From: an uncultured archaeon | GTDB lineage: Archaea; Asgardarchaeota; Lokiarchaeia; Sigyniarchaeales; SOKP01 | Length of the DNA stretch: 64,000 bases | Direction: 5' to 3' | Assembly (NCBI GenBank): GCA_964486045.1 | Contig: CAZALK010000013.1 | Coordinates: forward strand, 46,841 to 110,840 | Shown: positions 3,237-50,436 of the stretch, one piece after another | Numbering within the stretch: position 1 is the first letter of the stretch | Layout of the letters: the number at the start of each line of letters is the position of its first letter | Program-made: the position numbers and the translations under genes | The notes under the pieces: model-generated | Told to the model about the DNA's origin: nothing | Databases searched by the model: none | What the model saw: only the letters and a program-made list of their open reading frames with translations

Positions 3237-3854
3237 ATGAGTAAGATAAAGAAGGATATAAAACTTTTCAATAAATTTTCTTTTAAAAACATCGAAATTA
3301 TGGATCCAACCCTAGATAATTATATTAACTTAAAACCTATTATAATCCCTCATTCTGCGGGAAGACATGAACATAAAAGGTTTTGGAAATCTACCAAGGT
3401 GTCTGTACTTGAACGATTTGCTAATAGATTACTTTCTCCTGGGTTTATTGGTAGTCGAATTAAGGGTCATAAAAGTTCCTATCATTCCGGTAAGAAAGGA
3501 AAATTATTGGGATGTATGAAAAGTGCTTTTATTTTAATGGAATTAATCACAGGAGAAAATCCGATTCAGATTATAGTAGATGCAATTGTTAATACTGCAC
3601 CTAGAGAAGAAACTACCAAAATCGCTATGGGTGGGATAAGTTATGCGTCAGCAGTGGATATCGCGCCCCAGCGACGAGTTGACTTGGCCTTGAAGTATCT
3701 GGTTCAAGCTATTGGAGCAAGGTCGCATTCTAATGAAAAATTATTTGAAGAAAATCTAGCTCAAGAACTAATCTTAGCAGCAAAAAATAGTCAAGAATCT
3801 CGCGCGGTAAAGCGAAAGGATGAAATAGAAAGAATTGCAGTATCTGCTCGTTAA
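3237..3854 (+). CDS. rps7: 30S ribosomal protein S7 (uS7)
   Basis: PHSAGRH, NTAPREE, VDIAPQRRVDLAL, KDEIERIAVSAR. Confidence 0.98.
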   Translation: MSKIKKDIKLFNKFSFKNIEIMDPTLDNYINLKPIIIPHSAGRHEHKRFWKSTKVSVLERFANRLLSPGFIGSRIKGHKSSYHSGKKGKLLGCMKSAFILMELITGENPIQIIVDAIVNTAPREETTKIAMGGISYASAVDIAPQRRVDLALKYLVQAIGARSHSNEKLFEENLAQELILAAKNSQESRAVKRKDEIERIAVSAR

Positions 3855-4120
3855 TTAATCCCTGACTCCTTAAGCATCTATCATTTCAATTGGTTCAAAC
3901 AAGCAAGGTGAAATTGTAGACAAACCCTAGACAAAAAATATAAGATAACAATGGGGGTGATCTCCTTCGAGCTTTATAGAAATTTCCCAAAAAATAGAGT
4001 TTCCAAGCGATTTTTTTTCTTAAACCTTATATATTAAAAAAATTGGGTAAATTCTGATGAAATTTACTAAAAAATCAAAGCTAAAATAACCAATTGAAAT
4101 GTTAAAATAAAAAAGCTTAA

Positions 4121-4576
4121 TTAAATACCAAACTCTTCTTTTACCCATTCACGAGTTACGGGATCGTCAAAATCTTCATGAGTCATTTCATCATAGCGAC
4201 CAATCTTAAAACAATCAGTACATACCCATGACTCCAACCAGGGCACCCATACGAGATCAAGGTCAATCGGTCGATCCCTGGGGTTAAATCCGTGCTTTTT
4301 TGCCTCCTGAAAACTAATACAACCGGCCCCACAACCACATTGTAAAGTTGATTTGTAATAAGCACGATCAAGGTCTTTCCATTTTTCACCTAATTGTATT
4401 TTTCTCTTTTGTTGAGAGGGAGTCAAAATCCTTTTATATTTGTATAAATAATAAATTTTATCTAGCTTACGGAGTTCTTTTTTCACAGCTAATTTTAAGA
4501 TTATCCTGAGATTGTCTCGTACTCGTCTTAAACTTGGTGTTTTTAATGTAACTTTACGGATTTTTTTCGATCTCAT
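4121..4576 (-). CDS. Hypothetical Cys-rich (possibly Zn-binding) protein, cargo of the rps7 insertion
   Basis: Likely ATG at 4576 (MRSKK...); CGCGAGC and WVCTDC motifs. Confidence 0.65.
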   Translation of the reverse strand: MRSKKIRKVTLKTPSLRRVRDNLRIILKLAVKKELRKLDKIYYLYKYKRILTPSQQKRKIQLGEKWKDLDRAYYKSTLQCGCGAGCISFQEAKKHGFNPRDRPIDLDLVWVPWLESWVCTDCFKIGRYDEMTHEDFDDPVTREWVKEEFGI

Positions 4577-4641
4577 TAATATTATATTGCTGCTTTTAGT
4601 CTTTATATTTTTGGACTCTAAAAAATTAATGAATAAAAAAA

Positions 4642-5008
4642 TTAAACAATTGGATAAATATTTTCCCGCAAATAAGTGCTTAAAAACCACTGCCAGAACT
4701 TATCTCTCTTTCTTTCATCGAGAAATAGTTTATCGTCCATTGGTATTTTACCATTCAAGAACAACTTAAAATCTTCTTCAATTGGTAAATATCTAAATTT
4801 ATAGAAATTACTATATCCTTCTTTTGTATCTCGGAAAAATGCTTCATATCCATCTTTCTTCACCGTAAACCATCTCTTAATCCAATTCTCAATAATCTCT
4901 TTGTCTAAATCATCCCATATTTTTACGTCATTTCCATCTATTTGTACCGTCTTGCCTTGAAATTCATTTAAGAGGGTAGAATGATAGTTTTCGATGAATG
5001 GAGATTGG
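4642..5008 (-). pseudogene. 5'-truncated hypothetical gene
   Basis: The frame of the 4642..4863 ORF stays open (QSPFIENYHSTLLNEFQGKTVQIDGNDVKIWDD...) up to the rps7 repeat boundary with no ATG; it closes at a stop inside the repeat (5017-5019). Confidence 0.6.
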
Positions 5009-5110
5009 AATCTAGCTCAAGAACTAATCTTAGCAGCAAAAAATAGTCAAGAATCTCGGGCAGTAAAACGAAAAGATGAAATAGAGAGAATAGCCGTATC
5101 AGCTAGATGA
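5009..5110 (+). pseudogene. Orphan second copy of the last 33 codons of rps7
   Basis: Translates NLAQELILAAKNSQESRAVKRKDEIERIAVSAR*, identical to the S7 C-terminus. Confidence 0.95.
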
Positions 5111-45087: not shown

Positions 45088-47370
45088 ATGGTTAAAGTAA
45101 AGAACCCAGATGAGATAGTAAAGCTCGTAACTTCCGGATCTTATGAGAGAAAGAGAATTTTCAGTATAACCGCGCATTTTTAATAAGGTTTCCTTATTAT
45201 AGCGTAAATTGATCACGGGAAAACAACTGCTACTGATTATCTTCTACGTAGAGCAGGGCTCATGCGGCCAGAAGATGCTGGTCAACTTCAAATGACTGAC
45301 AGCGACGAGGAAGAACAGGCACGTGGGATTACCATTTTTACAAGTGTAGTTTTACTTGCATTCAATGACTCTAGAAAACCAGATGACACTGAACCTTATG
45401 TTATTCAATTAAATGATACTCCAGGTCATATTAGTTTTACCGGGGAGGTATCACGAGCTCTAAGAGGAAGCGATGGTGCAATAATATTGGTCGATGCTCT
45501 TGAAGGAGTAATGACCCAGACAGAAACTAATATTCGTTTATCCGTTGGTGAAGAATTCTGTAAACCAGTTCTATTCATTAATAAAGTTGACCGACTTATT
45601 AGTGAGCTTAAGTTAAGTCCTCAAGATACTTTTGCTAAAATAGATAAAATTACACGCGAAATTAATGAACTTATAAGAAAAGTGAGACCTGAGGGTTCGG
45701 GTTGGACCATTGATTTTGCTAAAAATTCAGTTGCAGTTGGTTCAGCAAAACATGGATGGGGTTTTACATATGAGATTTTAGTTGAAAAAAAAATGAAACC
45801 TCAAGATGTTTTCGCAAAATATACTGAAGGTGACATTCAGTGGTTAAGAGATAATTTACCTTTAGATGAGCCTCTGTTAAGGATGATCGTAGACCATCTT
45901 CCAGATCCTATTAGTGCTGCTAAATATAGAATACCTCATATCTGGGGAGGAGACCTAAGTTCTGAACTTGGACAATCTCTCGTGAAGAGTGATCCAAATG
46001 GGCCTCTCTACGGAATGATAACTAAGATTTTCTTAGACCCAAAAAGGAATTATCAAGCTACTCTTATCGGTCGTGTTTTTTCGGGTACGTTCAACCAAAC
46101 AGATTCAATTTATCTAATTAATAGCGATTCAAGCAACCGTGTGAAGCGGCTTGGAGTTATGGAGATTACTGATCTCTTAGATATTCCCCGGATTCCGGCA
46201 GGAAATTTATTTGCATTATTTGGTTTTGTATGCCCGGCTGGTGAAACATTTATGTTGACAAGTGAGGTTCCTAAAGATAAAGAAGAGAGGAAAAAGCTTC
46301 ACCCCTTCGAGAAAATTAATTATGCGTGCGAGGCTGTGGTTTCGCGGAGTATTAAACCTAAGGACCATCATCTCATTGATAAATTAGATGATGTAGTCGG
46401 AAAATGGCTTAAAGCGAACCCTGAAGCTGAATATCGAAGAGATGAAGAATCTGGTGAATTTGTGCTCTCTGGAATAGACCCTCTCCAAATTGAAATCCTG
46501 ACAAAGAGAATCAACATCCAAGTACCAATTGACATTGGGGAACCAATTATTATTTATAGGGAAAAAATTACGAAAAAAAGTCCGGAATATCATACAAAAT
46601 CTGCGAACACTCACAATCGTATAGTGTTATACATTGAACCTTTAGACGAAACAACAGAAAAGCTAATCGAAACCGGTAAAATTAATGATTTACAAAATGA
46701 CAAGGATAGAGCTAAAATTCTTAGGGAAGACGCAGATTGGGATGCTAAGGAAGCAAGGCGAATTGTTGATGTATATCAAGGAAGTCTCCTTGTCAATGGT
46801 ACTTCGGGATTACAGAGATTTGATCGCGTGAAGTCCTATTTGAGTGCTGCTTTTAGAGATTGGCTTGGTAATTGTATAATAGCAAAAGAACCCGCTACAG
46901 GAGTAAAAGCTGTATTTACAGATTTAGTCATCCATGAAGACCCAAGACATACGCAATATGGCCAGATTGCGGGAATGTTTTTCTCAGCTTTATCACTTGC
47001 GATGTTGGAAGCAGATTCTCATCTCTTTGAGCCAGTCCAGAAAATTGATGTTAAAACACCTCAAGGAACAGAAGGAGGGGTAACAGCCATTATCTCTAAG
47101 CGTCGAGGGAGGATAACTAATGTTATTCCTGAAGGTGAATACGTTAGGATCAAAGGTCAGATTCCTGCTGCCGAGGTAATTGGCATTGCAGACGATATCC
47201 GAGGCTCAACGCAAGGGAGGGCTTTTTTTGGATACGAATTTAAAGGCTTCGAGAAGGTTCCTGCTTCTACTGAAGAAGATCTCATCATGGAAATCCGCAA
47301 ACGCAAAGGACTGCCCCTAGAAATGCCTAATAGAAGGAGTTGGGAGCGTTTTATTTATAAACGTTCTTGA
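45088..47370 (+). CDS. fusA: Elongation factor 2; join(45088..45177,45208..47370), 750 aa after removal of the 30-nt insert
   Basis: Exon 1 MVKVKNPDEIVKLVTSGSYERKRIFSITAH + exon 2 IDHGKTTATDYLLRRAGLMRP...; EQARGITI, DTPGH, NKVD; domain IV HEDPRH; IRKRKGL. Confidence 0.93.
45178..45207 (+). other. Putative bulge-helix-bulge mRNA intron in EF-2
   Basis: 30 nt with 3 in-frame TAA. Central helix GCGC(45172-75)/GCGU(45202-05); bulges AU^U and AA^A, whose canonical cut positions equal the junctions that restore AHIDHGKTT; 8-bp hairpin UAAUAAGG/CCUUAUUA. Confidence 0.85.
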
Positions 47371-47780
47371 TGTTTCAAATTTATTGGAGTTTGGATAATT
47401 TGCTACAAGATGATTTTTCAGATATATTTTTACATCATATTCATGAAATTACTTGGAGTATGGAGGAAGAGGAACTTGGTGCAATTACGAGGGGATCTCA
47501 CTATGATTTATCCCATAGACGACGGATAGGTAGAATTGACTTATTCTCAGGGAGGAATAATTATAAACGCCACCAACGTTATTTTGAAGAGGTAAAAGCT
47601 TCACTAAATCCAGGTAGGCCTACAATACCCCCCGGTTGGACTCAAGATCAATTTGACACGTATTTAGATAGTCGTCAGTTTTATTATACCCATGGTGAGA
47701 GAAAGTGGTTTTTGGAATATTTCGGAGATTTCTACAGATTGTTTCAAAATAAAAAATTTTGGAATACTAAAAAATTATAA
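47367..47780 (+). CDS. Hypothetical protein (possibly a fragment), cargo of the EF-2 insertion
   Basis: 137-aa ORF overlapping the EF-2 stop; no recognised motif. Confidence 0.45.
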   Translation: MMFQIYWSLDNLLQDDFSDIFLHHIHEITWSMEEEELGAITRGSHYDLSHRRRIGRIDLFSGRNNYKRHQRYFEEVKASLNPGRPTIPPGWTQDQFDTYLDSRQFYYTHGERKWFLEYFGDFYRLFQNKKFWNTKKL

Positions 47781-47799
47781 TCGTTTAGGATATTTAGGT

Positions 47800-48684
47800 C
47801 TAAAATTGGTTTAATTGGGTTTGATTTTTATACCCACTAGAATAAATTTCTTTAATTTTATTTAGGACATCTACATCAAACATTTTTGGTTTATTTATTC
47901 TTAAGTTAATTTCTTTTAAGAATTGGTCTTTAATATGCTGCTCTCCCTTATGAACTTTTTTTATAAAAGGTATAACAAAATTAATTAAGATTGATTTATT
48001 TTTAAATAAAAAGTTTAGTTCATGTAGATTGTCAATAAAGCTAAAGAATCCCTCTACAGTTTCTTTACCAACTTTTTTGATTTTAATCCTATAAATTTTA
48101 GCGTAAAGTAACAATTCAATTTTTTTCAATTCACTTAACATATTAGATGCAATATATTTTTTTATACTATCAAAAGTCTGAGAATTGAGATTTGAGTTTT
48201 CTATTACTATCTTTAACTCTTCTGCATTTAAGATATCCAAGTAACCCTCATTTAACAAGAATTCCATAGTTTGAAAATGATTACTAGCAAATCTTTTGGC
48301 TATTTCTTCTTTAAGAATTCTTTTTGCTAAAGAATCTCCGATCCTCGTTAATTCATTTAATAGGGGAAAGGCTATAGTTCTATGTAATAATCGAGAGTTA
48401 TAGTTATTTTCATTCCATACTTGTAGATTTGAGCAATGCCCCCAAAATTCAATTTCTGGCGGAACATATCCCGTTTCTTCAATTCTTTGATTTTCCATTC
48501 TTTCTGATACTTCATCAACAGAATTAATTTCATTTACGCTTTTTGCTTCAATAATAGGGAAATTTAGCAATAAATATTTGCATTGTAAGAACTCCTTATT
48601 TCTAATATAGAGATTTGTTTTATTTTCTTCTAACTTGAGGGTTATATAATTATTAACCTTGAATTCTTTCGTTCTCTTCAACAA
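47800..48684 (-). CDS. Hypothetical protein of a Lokiarchaeia-type expanded family, cargo of the EF-2 insertion
   Basis: KEFKVNNYITLKLE...EFWGHCSNLQVW.EN.YNSRLLHR.IAFPLL..L...GD..AK...KEEIAKRF, recalled as a recurrent Loki N-terminal domain. Confidence 0.7.
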   Translation of the reverse strand: MLKRTKEFKVNNYITLKLEENKTNLYIRNKEFLQCKYLLLNFPIIEAKSVNEINSVDEVSERMENQRIEETGYVPPEIEFWGHCSNLQVWNENNYNSRLLHRTIAFPLLNELTRIGDSLAKRILKEEIAKRFASNHFQTMEFLLNEGYLDILNAEELKIVIENSNLNSQTFDSIKKYIASNMLSELKKIELLLYAKIYRIKIKKVGKETVEGFFSFIDNLHELNFLFKNKSILINFVIPFIKKVHKGEQHIKDQFLKEINLRINKPKMFDVDVLNKIKEIYSSGYKNQTQLNQF

Positions 48685-48855
48685 TTTTCACCCTTATATT
48701 TTAAAGATAGAAGATTTTACTATTTAAATGTCACCCGTTTTCAAGTTTTTAAGTAAAGAAGTTAATTCGCAACCTAAGGCACCAGACTCTTTATAAGAGG
48801 AATGATCCCTAAGAAATATAGACTTCGATTTAGACAAGTTTTAACAAACATAGCA

Positions 48856-48935
48856 GTTACCGCAATCATAGCAAAGCGTCGCTGGAAATGCCTAATAGAA
48901 GGAGTTGGGAGCGTTTTATTTATAAAAGATCATAA
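48856..48935 (+). pseudogene. Internally deleted orphan copy of the EF-2 3' region
   Basis: 48856-48882 encodes VTAIIAKRR (EF-2 47080-47106: VTAIISKRR), joined to LEMPNRRSWERFIYKRS*; T-tract follows at 48938-48944. Confidence 0.85.
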
Positions 48936-49041
48936 AATTTTTTTAATTATTTTTATCAAACATTACAATAATAAGTATAATACATGTAAAACTAGTTATT
49001 ACTAAGATTTAAAAAACTAAATGATCCCTAAGAGAAACTAC

Positions 49042-49596
49042 TTACTTTGCGATCATATGTAATTTTTTAACAAGAGCTTTAAACGCGTCAGTCACTTTTT
49101 GGCCTGTTAGAGCACTTGTTTTATAATAACCTATAAATCTATTCTCTTTTGCTAATGTTTCTACATTATTATCTGATGTTAAAATATTCGGATTCGAACT
49201 TAACTCACCTTCATCTATTAAATCAACTTTATTCCCAAATAGAACAATGGGAATACCTCCACAATGTTTCTTGAGATCACTAAGCCATCTGGGTACATGT
49301 TCATAAGTTTGGGTTTGATCAGGAGCATGAGAAAACACGATTATAGCTCCACTACTTCCCGTGTAGAATCTTTGGCGTAGGGCTTGAAATGAATCTTGAC
49401 CAGCAATGTCCCATAGAAATAATTCAACTTTATCTCCATCAATTATTTCTTCATATTTAGAGAATTGAGTTCCCAAAGTTGATATATACTCTTCTCGAAA
49501 AGAACCTTGAGTGTATTTTTTAATTAATGAAGTCTTACCGACAGAACCGTCACCGATAACCGTAATCTTAAATCCATATCCAGTACTGTTACTCAT
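49042..49596 (-). CDS. Rab-like small GTPase
   Basis: GDGSVGKTS, WDIAGQ, GNKVD, TSALTG. Confidence 0.93.
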   Translation of the reverse strand: MSNSTGYGFKITVIGDGSVGKTSLIKKYTQGSFREEYISTLGTQFSKYEEIIDGDKVELFLWDIAGQDSFQALRQRFYTGSSGAIIVFSHAPDQTQTYEHVPRWLSDLKKHCGGIPIVLFGNKVDLIDEGELSSNPNILTSDNNVETLAKENRFIGYYKTSALTGQKVTDAFKALVKKLHMIAK

Positions 49597-49887
49597 ATTT
49601 ACCAGCTCTATTAAGTTTCCATTACTTAAATAGTAAAAGTTAGATATTTTAAACTTTTTTTTTTCGAAGATATATTTCTAATTCTAGTAATTAAAGTAGT
49701 GTATCACCATCATAATTATTTAATTATAAACTCAATCAATATTATTTAGGCTTTGATTATAAGCCAAAAACCCTGACAATTTCATCAGTATTGTCAATTT
49801 GATAGAAAAAATCGAATAGCTAATATTAAAAGATGATCTTATCCTTGTACGTCAAAATAAGTACTAAAATTGATTAATAAAAGAAAA

Positions 49888-50436
49888 TTATATTGTAGCT
49901 CTTTGATGTAACTTAAATACTAATGCTTGAAAAGCTTCTTTTACTCCTTGACCTGTTAATGCACTTGTTTTGTAATATTCAATAATACCATGGTCTTGGG
50001 CAAATTTTTTTACGTGAACATCTGAAGTTGCATAATTTGGTGTAGCTAATGCATTTTGATCAACCTTATCAGCTTTATTTCCAAATAATATTACGGGAAT
50101 CCTTCCACATCCTTCTTTTATATTTGACAACCATTTATCAATATGTTCCCATGATTCTAGATCTTCAGGAGCGAGAGAAAAAACAACAATCGCACCACTG
50201 CTTCCCTTATAAAATCTGTCACGTAGACTACTGAAACTTTCTTGTCCAGCCAAATCCCATAATAATAATTCCACATTTTCCCCTTCAACAGGAACTACAT
50301 ATTTCGAAAATTGCATACCTAACGTAGCAATGTAATCTTTTTCAAATGAATCTGTAGTATATCTTTTGATTAGCGAAGTCTTACCTACAGCTCCATCACC
50401 GACTACAACAATCTTAAATTTGAAAGCATCACTCAT
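49888..50436 (-). CDS. Rab-like small GTPase (tandem paralog)
   Basis: GDGAVGKTS, WDLAGQ, GNKAD, TSALTG. Confidence 0.93.
   Translation of the reverse strand: MSDAFKFKIVVVGDGAVGKTSLIKRYTTDSFEKDYIATLGMQFSKYVVPVEGENVELLLWDLAGQESFSSLRDRFYKGSSGAIVVFSLAPEDLESWEHIDKWLSNIKEGCGRIPVILFGNKADKVDQNALATPNYATSDVHVKKFAQDHGIIEYYKTSALTGQGVKEAFQALVFKLHQRATI

Follow-up and report, generated by a model that had tools for sequence, protein, structure and literature searches.

A strain-variable two-gene insert behind the EF-2 gene of a Lokiarchaeia archaeon, with cargo probably related to giant variable-tip proteins

The window analysed here is a stretch of 64,000 nucleotides from an uncultured archaeon of the Lokiarchaeia (Table 1), in which no tRNA gene was found. 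The EF-2 gene discussed below is the canonical aEF-2. In domain IV it has the motif HEDPRH-T-Q, which is how the canonical copy reads in Lokiarchaeota: the His is kept, while R is changed to T and G to S/Q (PMC6143161). Given this pattern, the possibility that the gene in the window is aEF-2p was dropped. A second EF-2-like copy on contig C10, which is 33% identical, is taken to be aEF-2p.

Table 1. Features of the EF-2 locus and of the rps7 locus in the window.
Feature	Position	Strand	Remarks
Rps7 sister scar	3753..5110	+	50 perfect bp, then 11 differences in 52 bp
Cys-rich partner protein	4121..4690	-	Second candidate immunity family
Truncated giant-protein tip fragment	4642..5011	-	Cut at rps7 remnant junction
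Canonical aEF-2 gene	45088..47370	+	~750 aa without 30-nt insert 45178-45207
Recombination tract adjoining insert	46257..47319	+	Right limit inferred
Duplicated core, upstream copy	47320..47361	+	42 bp, EMPNRRSWERFIYK
Segment absent from X2 strain	47320..48884		1,565 bp; equivalent to 47362-48926
Incoming replacement tail	47362..47370	+	CGT TCT TGA
136-aa HNH-like ORF	47370..47780	+	H22, H23, H44, H49; ATG overlaps EF-2 stop
294-aa ORF, Loki "FWGHCSN" family	47800..48684	-	Start codon uncertain
14-bp copy of native EF-2/Rab spacer	48801..48814	+	Also at 49020-49033
Diverged EF-2 fragment	48852..48884	+	Joined across ~210-nt internal gap to CTG before core
Duplicated core, downstream copy	48885..48926	+	Crossover segment of empty allele
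Native tail and T-tract	48927..48944	+	AGA TCA TAA; kept by insert-free X2 strain
Rab-like GTPase, convergent	49042..49596	-	

The 42-bp core at the end of the EF-2 gene recurs without a mismatch at a spacing of 1,565 bp and occurs nowhere else in the 5.18-Mb genome. Both copies are followed by tails that code for R-S-stop (47362-47370 and 48927-48935) and differ at 4 of 9 bases, so that the perfect repeat with synonymous ends reported by the initial annotation is borne out in coordinates and letters. The incoming stop codon TGA overlaps the start of the next ORF as TGATG; the stop codons of 118 related EF-2 genes are TAA in 98, TAG in 20 and TGA in none. A T7 tract (48938-48944) follows the downstream copy only. 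The earlier statement that the T-tract is confined to the downstream copy thus holds at this EF-2 locus, but fails as a general rule, as T-tracts stand behind both copies in genome G019; among 30 single-copy scars, the stronger T-tract lies downstream in 15 and upstream in 10. As first described, two ORFs and no recombinase gene are found between the copies.

Near-identical strains differ in whether they carry the insert. In sequencing run X2, from another sample, the empty allele lies within one contig, where position 47319 is joined to 48885 at a depth of 67; 42 letters at this joint fit both sides, and the skip is exactly 1,565 bp. In run X1, the probable source sample, the depth of the insert is 246, compared to 238 and 271 for its flanks. 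Both flanks are ~99.7% identical to the X2 strain. Because the insert-free X2 strain retains the downstream EF-2 end, this end is the native one; a foreign synonymous end has come in, and the native end and its T-tract have been displaced. The small shares seen in run X3 were excluded from the evidence. The 7.8% contamination of the genome might raise the suspicion that assembly merged two strains into a chimera or built a free circle into the contig at the 42-bp repeat, and the assembly graph alone cannot tell an integrated from a circular form because the X1 unitigs break at the repeat. The equal depths of insert and flanks, the ~99.7% likeness of the flanks to X2 and the recovery of the same structure in independent assemblies, however, make such an artefact highly improbable. 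The strain-chimeric join against which the initial annotation had cautioned is accordingly not seen at EF-2, where the X1 depth is even and the X2 empty allele is contained in a single contig.

Directly upstream of the insert, the EF-2 gene has 43 differences from the X2 strain in 45802-47319, compared to 3 in 1,316 bp downstream and 3 in 1,044 bp upstream. The 26 differences that are listed of these 43 all fall within 46257-46662, and 25 of them are in synonymous codons. Polarising the X2/G000 tract by the nearest outgroup yielded 11 vs 11 sites, which favours neither direction of exchange. The downstream EF-2 remnant begins before the core, with a synonymous CTG in place of CTA, and is preceded by a diverged fragment of which 48852-48882 encodes VTAIIAKRR, compared to VTAIISKRR at 47080-47106 of the gene. 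Outside the gene itself, only ~20 of 10.4 million windows contain an 8/9-residue match to EF-2. The bases of the fragment match metagenome locus L117 at 25 of 29 positions and the genome's own EF-2 at 20 of 29; judged by its bases, the fragment is from a foreign EF-2 allele. The 14-bp spacer copy is probably left over from an earlier filled allele, and at least three EF-2 alleles are layered at this locus. In 53 of the 69 loci where both genes were found, the Rab-like gene lies <200 bp from the EF-2 stop; the ancestral state is an EF-2 gene that directly faces the Rab gene.

The 136-aa ORF contains the motif HH-x20-H-x4-H, with strands at residues 19-23 and 36-40 followed by a helix. Its nearest Atlas models belong to HNH families in 6 of 7 cases, at weak TM values of 0.25-0.41. 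Pfam and PDB sequence searches of the 136-aa tip family returned no match and no Pfam HNH, Pfam assigned no family to either the 136-aa or the 294-aa ORF, and Foldseek and VIA searches of the PDB with the 136-aa ORF gave nothing significant (best Z 3.3, with only weak HNH-containing rows). The 136-aa domain stands alone here. Elsewhere its homologs stand at the C-termini of much larger proteins, with lengths of at least 469, at least 657 and 1,711 aa, on two unrelated carriers; genomes G026, G102 and G065 hold tip-domain carriers of the EF-2 cargo type. These longer relatives came from an exhaustive search, while another homolog search gave none longer or near. The 136-aa ORF is a candidate orphan toxin tip and putatively a nuclease of the HNH type, an assignment that is weak. 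Strong matches to the domain are present in 7 of 135 genomes, and the closest homolog, 57% identical, is followed by a gene of the 294-aa family. Both the 136-aa and the 294-aa ORFs differ from their homologs most at third codon positions.

Intronless homing is known from T-even phages. A free-standing HNH protein of 136 aa might likewise cut empty alleles in or near EF-2, with repair copying the insert and co-converting the adjoining tract. The apparently intact His motif, the TGATG overlap with the highly expressed EF-2 gene and the one-sided difference tract directly upstream of the insert would all be consistent with homing, as would the link of long-target-duplication insertions to DNA breakage by inserted nucleases (PMC2853133). 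Against it, large proteins carry the domain as an exchangeable C-terminus, and a partner gene accompanies it; the domain is rare among the genomes and has decayed at this site in G019, and most scars contain no recognisable nuclease. We therefore consider homing improbable.

The 294-aa ORF belongs to a family with 47 members among the 4,368 ORFs of the genome, and a gene of this family lies directly behind 4 of the 7 giant variable-tip genes. Its gene is convergent to the 136-aa ORF in the window, and hence not co-transcribed with it, but stands in tandem in G019 and L212; the same pair recurs at EF-2 in G019 and elsewhere in L211/L212. Most of the 47 members have no recognisable tip upstream, and an LRR-fused member occupies the same EF-2 site in L114, without tip and without remnant. 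By its gene neighbourhoods, the 294-aa ORF is a candidate immunity partner, and the odds that it is a true immunity protein are put at slightly below even. A predicted complex of the two proteins scored 0.00, which was counted neither way.

The second scar in the window, at rps7, encloses a tip fragment and a Zn-finger-like partner. In agreement with the initial annotation, its core has nothing in common with the EF-2 core. The tip fragment shares 60% identity with the tip of a G075 giant whose length is at least 4,668 aa, and the Cys-rich partner is 64% identical to the gene behind that giant. The remnant junction has a microhomology of 3 bp, a length that chance could give. The rps7 module is also found in G001, G118 and G131, with the partner only in G081, and behind other genes in G023 and on C1 of G000. 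As at the EF-2 locus of G019, tips at the rps7 loci are often decayed while the partners are intact. The genome encodes 7 giant variable-tip proteins; among the giant paralogs, the body is conserved at 72-88% identity and the last 550-600 residues are variable. Neither the carriers, the tips nor the two partner families have a Pfam match above the cut-off, and a limited literature search found no paper on these families in Asgard archaea. The cargos at EF-2 and rps7 are not unrelated hypothetical genes; both are best described as putative tip-plus-partner modules of giant polymorphic proteins.

Genome-wide, 36 orphan 3' ends downstream and 20 mirror-image orphan 5' ends upstream were counted, compared to 6 and 11 in the other orientations. 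The ORFs were called mechanically, with no gene finder, and host genes were identified by eye. Tandem paralogs may account for several of the 36 strict cases, so that ~25-36 is a fairer count. A control with Rab 3' ends was swamped by paralogs. The pattern therefore recurs well beyond the two loci first noticed, but the special link to essential translation genes proposed for it finds no support: EF-2 and rps7 are the only such genes recognisable by eye among the 36, and other hosts include acetyl-CoA synthetase, a ferredoxin-like gene, Rab GTPases and radical-SAM-like genes. EF-2 remnants are found in 4 of 128 family genomes and one metagenome contig, with arms of ~33-42, 42, 54, 125 and 670 bp, and rps7 remnants in 4 of 128, with arms of 102, ~178, 202 and 234 bp. 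The left ends differ among G000, G112, G084 and L121 for EF-2, and among the rps7 cases. Arms are perfect on the 5' side and diverged on the 3' side (P ~5e-4, 3e-4 and 9e-7 under uniform scatter); the G084 arm at EF-2 is perfect in the middle and mismatched at its ends.

Integrative elements typically replace the 3' ends of genes. A site-specific recombinase acting in trans might have mobilised the insert as a non-autonomous mini-island, using the 42-bp core as att site, and the 3'-end replacement, five tyrosine recombinase matches in the genome and remnant left ends of G000 and G019 that lie within a few bases of each other would fit this view. Arm lengths at one gene, however, vary ~20-fold, the scar cores share no sequence, no flanking inverted repeats stand out, and a 29-kb insert at EF-2 in G084 matches none of three of the genome's tyrosine recombinases. 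In the relatives' loci examined, no integrase-bearing element was seen at the same site (G084 having been compared with those three recombinases only). As the duplications vary in length, from 33 to 670 bp at EF-2 and from 102 to 234 bp at rps7, there is no fixed att site, and a trans-mobilised mini-island is improbable as well. Of the mechanisms offered in the initial annotation, trans-mobilisation therefore loses ground, with no sign of a trans-acting integrase, whereas its exclusion of one integrase with one att site and its homology-anchored recombination agree with the variable duplications and unrelated cores.

It is also conceivable that an ordinary recombination scar lies in a variable slot between convergent genes and that its cargo is incidental, drawn from common mobile accessory genes. 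Unrelated fillers without remnants occupy the EF-2/Rab slot in 16 of 69 loci (gaps >200 bp), cargo is diverse across scars and unrelated in most of the 36, and a repeat of at least 28 bp brackets 7% of random ORFs compared to 10.5% of the 294-aa-family genes. By a hand count, the partner families account for 5 of 73 scar cargo ORFs, compared to ~1 expected, and for only 3 after removal of the two loci that prompted the idea. Incidental cargo is nevertheless unlikely, given that the same two-gene pair is found at EF-2 in G019 and in L211/L212, that the rps7 module recurs, and that both partner families are linked to the giant genes with variable tips.

We thus favor, with a probability of roughly 0.6, a recombinase-free scar of host recombination whose cargo is a tip/partner module orphaned from a giant polymorphic toxin-like system. 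That host recombination formed the scar is very probable, and derivation of the cargo from a tip/partner system, as suggested by its homologs, is quite likely. In a first step, foreign DNA in which an EF-2 3' end is linked to the cargo would pair with the host gene, and rejoining upstream of the pairing point, with little or no homology, would duplicate host sequence. In a second step, the filled allele would spread among relatives via homologous exchange, with the stranded end as a short second arm; the differences in the remnant would be synonymous because exchange refreshes it from working genes. The module might be kept since the partner guards against toxins of neighbours, the pair is addictive, or both. 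The one-sided divergence of the arms is not what a plain circle from a distant donor predicts. Linear exchange and circle integration with gene conversion yield nearly the same product, and the G084 arm fits the latter; the junction at EF-2 has been overwritten by later events.

Elements that restore the 3' ends of protein-coding genes are known, such as e14 in icd and islands in guaA. The EF-2 insert resembles them in its incoming 3' end and displaced native end; these elements, however, encode or borrow an integrase and have a fixed core, neither of which is seen here. Insertion with long target duplication has been described for bacterial restriction-modification genes (Nobusato et al., 2000; Furuta, Abe & Kobayashi, 2010; PMC2853133). 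Like that class, the insert is <20 kb (1,565 bp) with no other mobile-element gene, its duplication is >30 bp (42 bp), variable in length and single-copy in the empty allele of a relative, and its cargo is nuclease-like. In contrast, the insert lies in an Asgard archaeon, its repeat is the coding 3' end of a gene and bears a foreign synonymous tail, and the cargo is a putative tip/partner pair of HNH-like and FWGHCSN-family ORFs with no methyltransferase. The insert therefore works like this class, yet is no restriction-modification member of it. Homology-facilitated illegitimate recombination builds orphan arrays at T6SS, Rhs and CDI loci (Kirchberger et al., 2017; PMC5361080). There, too, a conserved anchor admits a foreign toxin/immunity module, the resident end is displaced downstream, spread is by homologous recombination, and immunity genes outlast toxin tips; the foreign synonymous tail and adjacent tract point to donor alleles of a homologous anchor here as well. 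The anchor in that system is the toxin locus itself, with orphans behind it, whereas here the ends of housekeeping genes (EF-2, rps7, Rab and a ribbon-helix-helix gene), distant from the giant genes, serve as anchors. Polymorphic toxin systems with orphan CT/immunity modules, as Zhang et al. (2012) are cited in PMC6393860 and PMC5361080, are likewise comparable: the giant paralogs appear to combine a conserved body, variable nuclease-like tips as the C-termini of large carriers, a partner gene immediately downstream and scattered orphan modules. The type of scar is thus known already, without specificity for translation genes; the cargo is the new part of the finding.

Filled and empty alleles in near-identical Asgard strains, with a recombination tract alongside, are direct evidence of DNA exchange in these uncultured archaea and of gene gain at the ends of conserved genes. 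Three families so far called "hypothetical" also acquire an identity open to testing: the HNH-like tip and the two partner families linked to giant proteins with variable tips. Should the partner neutralise the tip, one of the larger unexplained expansions of Loki genes (47 copies here) would be an immunity repertoire, and antagonism among the closest prokaryotic relatives of eukaryotes could be tested with two small proteins in a laboratory host. More speculatively, and with considerable doubt, Lokiarchaeia may wage contact warfare through giant nuclease-tipped proteins and become resistant when orphan tip/immunity modules are captured, with no integrase, behind genes that are conserved and highly expressed; the stranded end would be a reusable handle with which the module toggles in the population, and the FWGHCSN/LRR family a dispersed immunity archive.

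Crenarchaeal cbf5 mRNA contains a BHB intron. The 30-nt insert of the aEF-2 gene may be similar, as it is predicted to form a hairpin with bulge-helix-bulge geometry and its excision would restore the frame; unlike the cbf5 intron, the putative inserts sit in Lokiarchaeia aEF-2, at two positions.

The 42-bp repeat, the synonymous R-S-stop tails, the T-tract and the two ORFs that the initial annotation described at EF-2 were all found again, as was the lack of shared sequence between the EF-2 and rps7 cores, which are unrelated; in a genome-wide check the EF-2 core occurred at this one locus only. The core and tail of the remnant (i.e., the stranded downstream copy of the gene end) were also as annotated, but the remnant is longer than had been noted, as it includes a diverged EF-2 piece that is fused, across a gap of ~210 nt, to a synonymous CTG followed by the core. 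This piece matches another lineage's allele at 25/29 vs. 20/29 for the genome's own; such a match would very rarely arise by chance. A 14-bp copy of the native spacer is located shortly upstream of it. The EF-2 of the window is the canonical aEF-2, because its domain IV (HEDPRH-T-Q) matches the Lokiarchaeota aEF-2 pattern, in which the His is retained and R is changed to T and G to S/Q (PMC6143161). The gene content of the window's genome (G000) includes Rab GTPases and two EF-2 paralogs, which suggests a Loki-type Asgard archaeon of marine sediment origin. The P-loop codons of aEF-2 are split between AH and IDHGKT by a 30-nt in-frame insert with stops, a hairpin of bulge-helix-bulge geometry that is shared with G018 and is likely an mRNA intron. 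Seven relatives have a second 30-nt insert, between DSD and DEEQ.

The EF-2 insert is a real, strain-variable, integrase-free insertion of an already known scar type. In sequencing run X2, from a different sample of the same study as X1 (probably the source sample), a strain ~99.7% identical on both flanks has a contig that omits exactly 47320-48884, and its EF-2 terminates with the downstream tail. In X1, insert depth equals flank depth, and the unitigs end at the 42-bp repeat, so that the graph alone fits integrated and circular forms alike. Among relatives the empty EF-2/Rab state is ancestral, as no more than 200 bp separate EF-2 from the Rab gene at 53 of 69 loci. The two strains differ at 43 positions in 45802-47319, a recombination tract adjoining the insert; the 26 differences printed all fall in 46257-46662, 25 of them in synonymous codons. 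Either the window strain imported the filled allele or the X2 strain imported an empty one; the tract is compatible with both, and outgroups favor neither. A minor variant in X1 has several alleles in common with the X2 strain and represents a co-occurring relative.

The start codon of the 136-aa ORF overlaps the EF-2 stop (TGATG), and TGA is the stop in none of 118 related EF-2 genes, which suggests that the two may be translationally coupled. Its stand-alone relatives are 130-135 aa long (57 and 32% identity), and others form the C-terminal domain of larger proteins: one of at least 469 aa that weakly matches an S24-like peptidase, one of at least 657 aa in which hydrophobic helices come before the domain, and one of 1,711 aa, an unrelated acidic carrier in G065. 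G000 encodes a second family, of long acidic proteins kin to the last. An HH...H...H pattern is retained across the family, and the predicted model (pLDDT 71) places two strands and a helix there. HNH families account for 6 of the 7 nearest Atlas rows (TM 0.25-0.41), while PDB and Pfam searches with the family gave no match.

In tandem after the closest 136-aa homolog comes a gene 51-54% identical to the 294-aa ORF, and the EF-2 locus of G019 has the same pair, with the tip decayed and the partner intact; in that locus (L038) a 17-bp unit occurs three times at the partner gene start, about 390-440 bp past the EF-2 stop. G000 contains seven giant or contig-truncated giant genes. Between paralogs, body identity is 72-88% and the variable part comprises the final 550-600 residues, with longer tails for C9/C10. 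A gene of the 294-aa (FWGHCSN) family, which makes up 1.1% of ORFs, lies within 130 bp after 4 of the 7. In the window the partner is convergent to the tip, and the majority of family members have no tip. Two giant-protein tails without a head, one with a weak ubiquitin-like match, precede intact partner genes of the FWGHCSN and a Cys-rich family.

Positions of features (window unless a contig, C, or locus, L, is named)
Feature	Location	Remark
Diverged EF-2 piece	48852-48882	
aEF-2 P-loop insert	45178-45207	
X1 minor variant	46434-46719	depth 6.5; 30 differences in 286 bp
Tandem Rab-like genes	49042-50436	72% alike over 180 bp
Tandem repeat	1-79	18-bp unit
Giant	G000 C7:85-28497	tip HNH-like
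Giant	G000 C8:142-28344	
Giant	G000 C4:281939-297592	tip PD-(D/E)xK-like by eye
Giant	G000 C23:719-6325	tip HNH-like
Giant	G000 C9:108-10280	
Giant	G000 C10:187929-197972	
Giant	G000 C8:79139-84958	
Headless tail	G000 C3:72964-77733	
Headless tail	L244 (C13:8102-10689)	ubiquitin-like match
Second acidic family	G000 C1:291709, C14:38871, C20:114, C31:226, C1:700558	
rps7 locus	L113 (G081 C2:28105-28977)	
Rab 3'-end scar	L206:1568-3014 (G000 C1:31067-32513)	
Tandem modules	L203:4104-5926 (G106)	
29-kb insert	L106/L107 (G084 C10, about 652-682 kb)	

At rps7, a cargo fragment shares 60% identity with the tip of a G075 giant (at least 4,668 aa), and the Cys-rich cargo gene is 64% identical to the gene adjoining that giant. 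These homologies and those at EF-2 indicate that both events in the window carry tip/partner modules. Judged from sequence, the EF-2 insert probably carries an orphan module, a nuclease tip with its partner, that derives from a giant toxin-like system; a literature search found no paper on such a system. The rps7-type module is also found at rps7 in G001, G118 and G131 (partner alone in G081). In G023 it lies behind a ribbon-helix-helix gene, and in G000 an rps7-like tip fragment with a Cys-rich partner lies between the copies of a duplicated Rab 3' end (68 bp, 96%). In G106, two tandem modules of a decayed tip and a 78/81-aa partner, a third partner family, lie between 87-bp repeats. Partner genes are weakly enriched among scar cargo (3 vs. 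about 1 expected by hand count, the two index loci excluded). A link between such modules and gene-end scars is proposed here.

Of 128 family genomes, 4 have EF-2 remnants, as does one metagenome contig (arms, i.e., duplicated stretches, of about 33-42, 42, 54, 125 and 670 bp), and 4 of the 128 have rps7 remnants (102, about 178, 202 and 234 bp). The 670-bp EF-2 3'-end copies (97.5% identical) flank a 29-kb insert in G084 with small GTPase and PAS/response-regulator (sensor) genes; no recombinase was recognized in it, and it did not match three of the tyrosine recombinases of G000. Genome-wide, the strict scan bore out the expectation of further cases, with 36 orphan 3' ends downstream vs. 6 upstream and 20 orphan 5' ends upstream vs. 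11 downstream; a looser single-copy scan gave 30, 7, 13 and 4, respectively, with mid-gene controls of 4 and 3. The proposed recurrence of cargo capture at gene ends is upheld, but not a particular tie to essential translation genes: only two scar hosts were recognizable as such, and the anchor is any gene end. The cargo is diverse. In L113, the full rps7 ends in a 70%-type allele and the stranded end is 83%-type, which suggests replacement by a distant lineage's allele.

Two published schemes match the window scar: insertion with long target duplication (PMC2853133) and, for T6SS arrays, the displacement model (PMC5361080). In the three youngest arms the 5' side is perfect and the 3' side synonymously diverged (P about 5e-4, 3e-4, and 9e-7 against evenly scattered mismatches); the pooled scars had no such bias (469 vs. 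443). Because a single crossover of a circle from a distant donor would leave divergence on both sides, the one-sided arms imply copying or conversion of host sequence. A possible alternative, which the G084 arm fits, is integration of a circle together with gene conversion. In the simplest account, foreign DNA would be anchored by homology to the gene end and would rejoin the chromosome upstream of that point with little homology, after which the insert would spread through allelic exchange, with the remnant serving as the short arm. The rps7 junction cuts a cargo gene and has 3 bp of microhomology, which is weak.

The EF-2/Rab slot is itself a hotspot. Its variable fillers without a remnant (G003, G008, G011, G021, G034, L132 and L134) include a 92-aa YbjQ-like protein and a 120-aa glyoxalase-like protein, both by eye, and an extra Rab. 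The window has a tandem pair of Rab-like genes.
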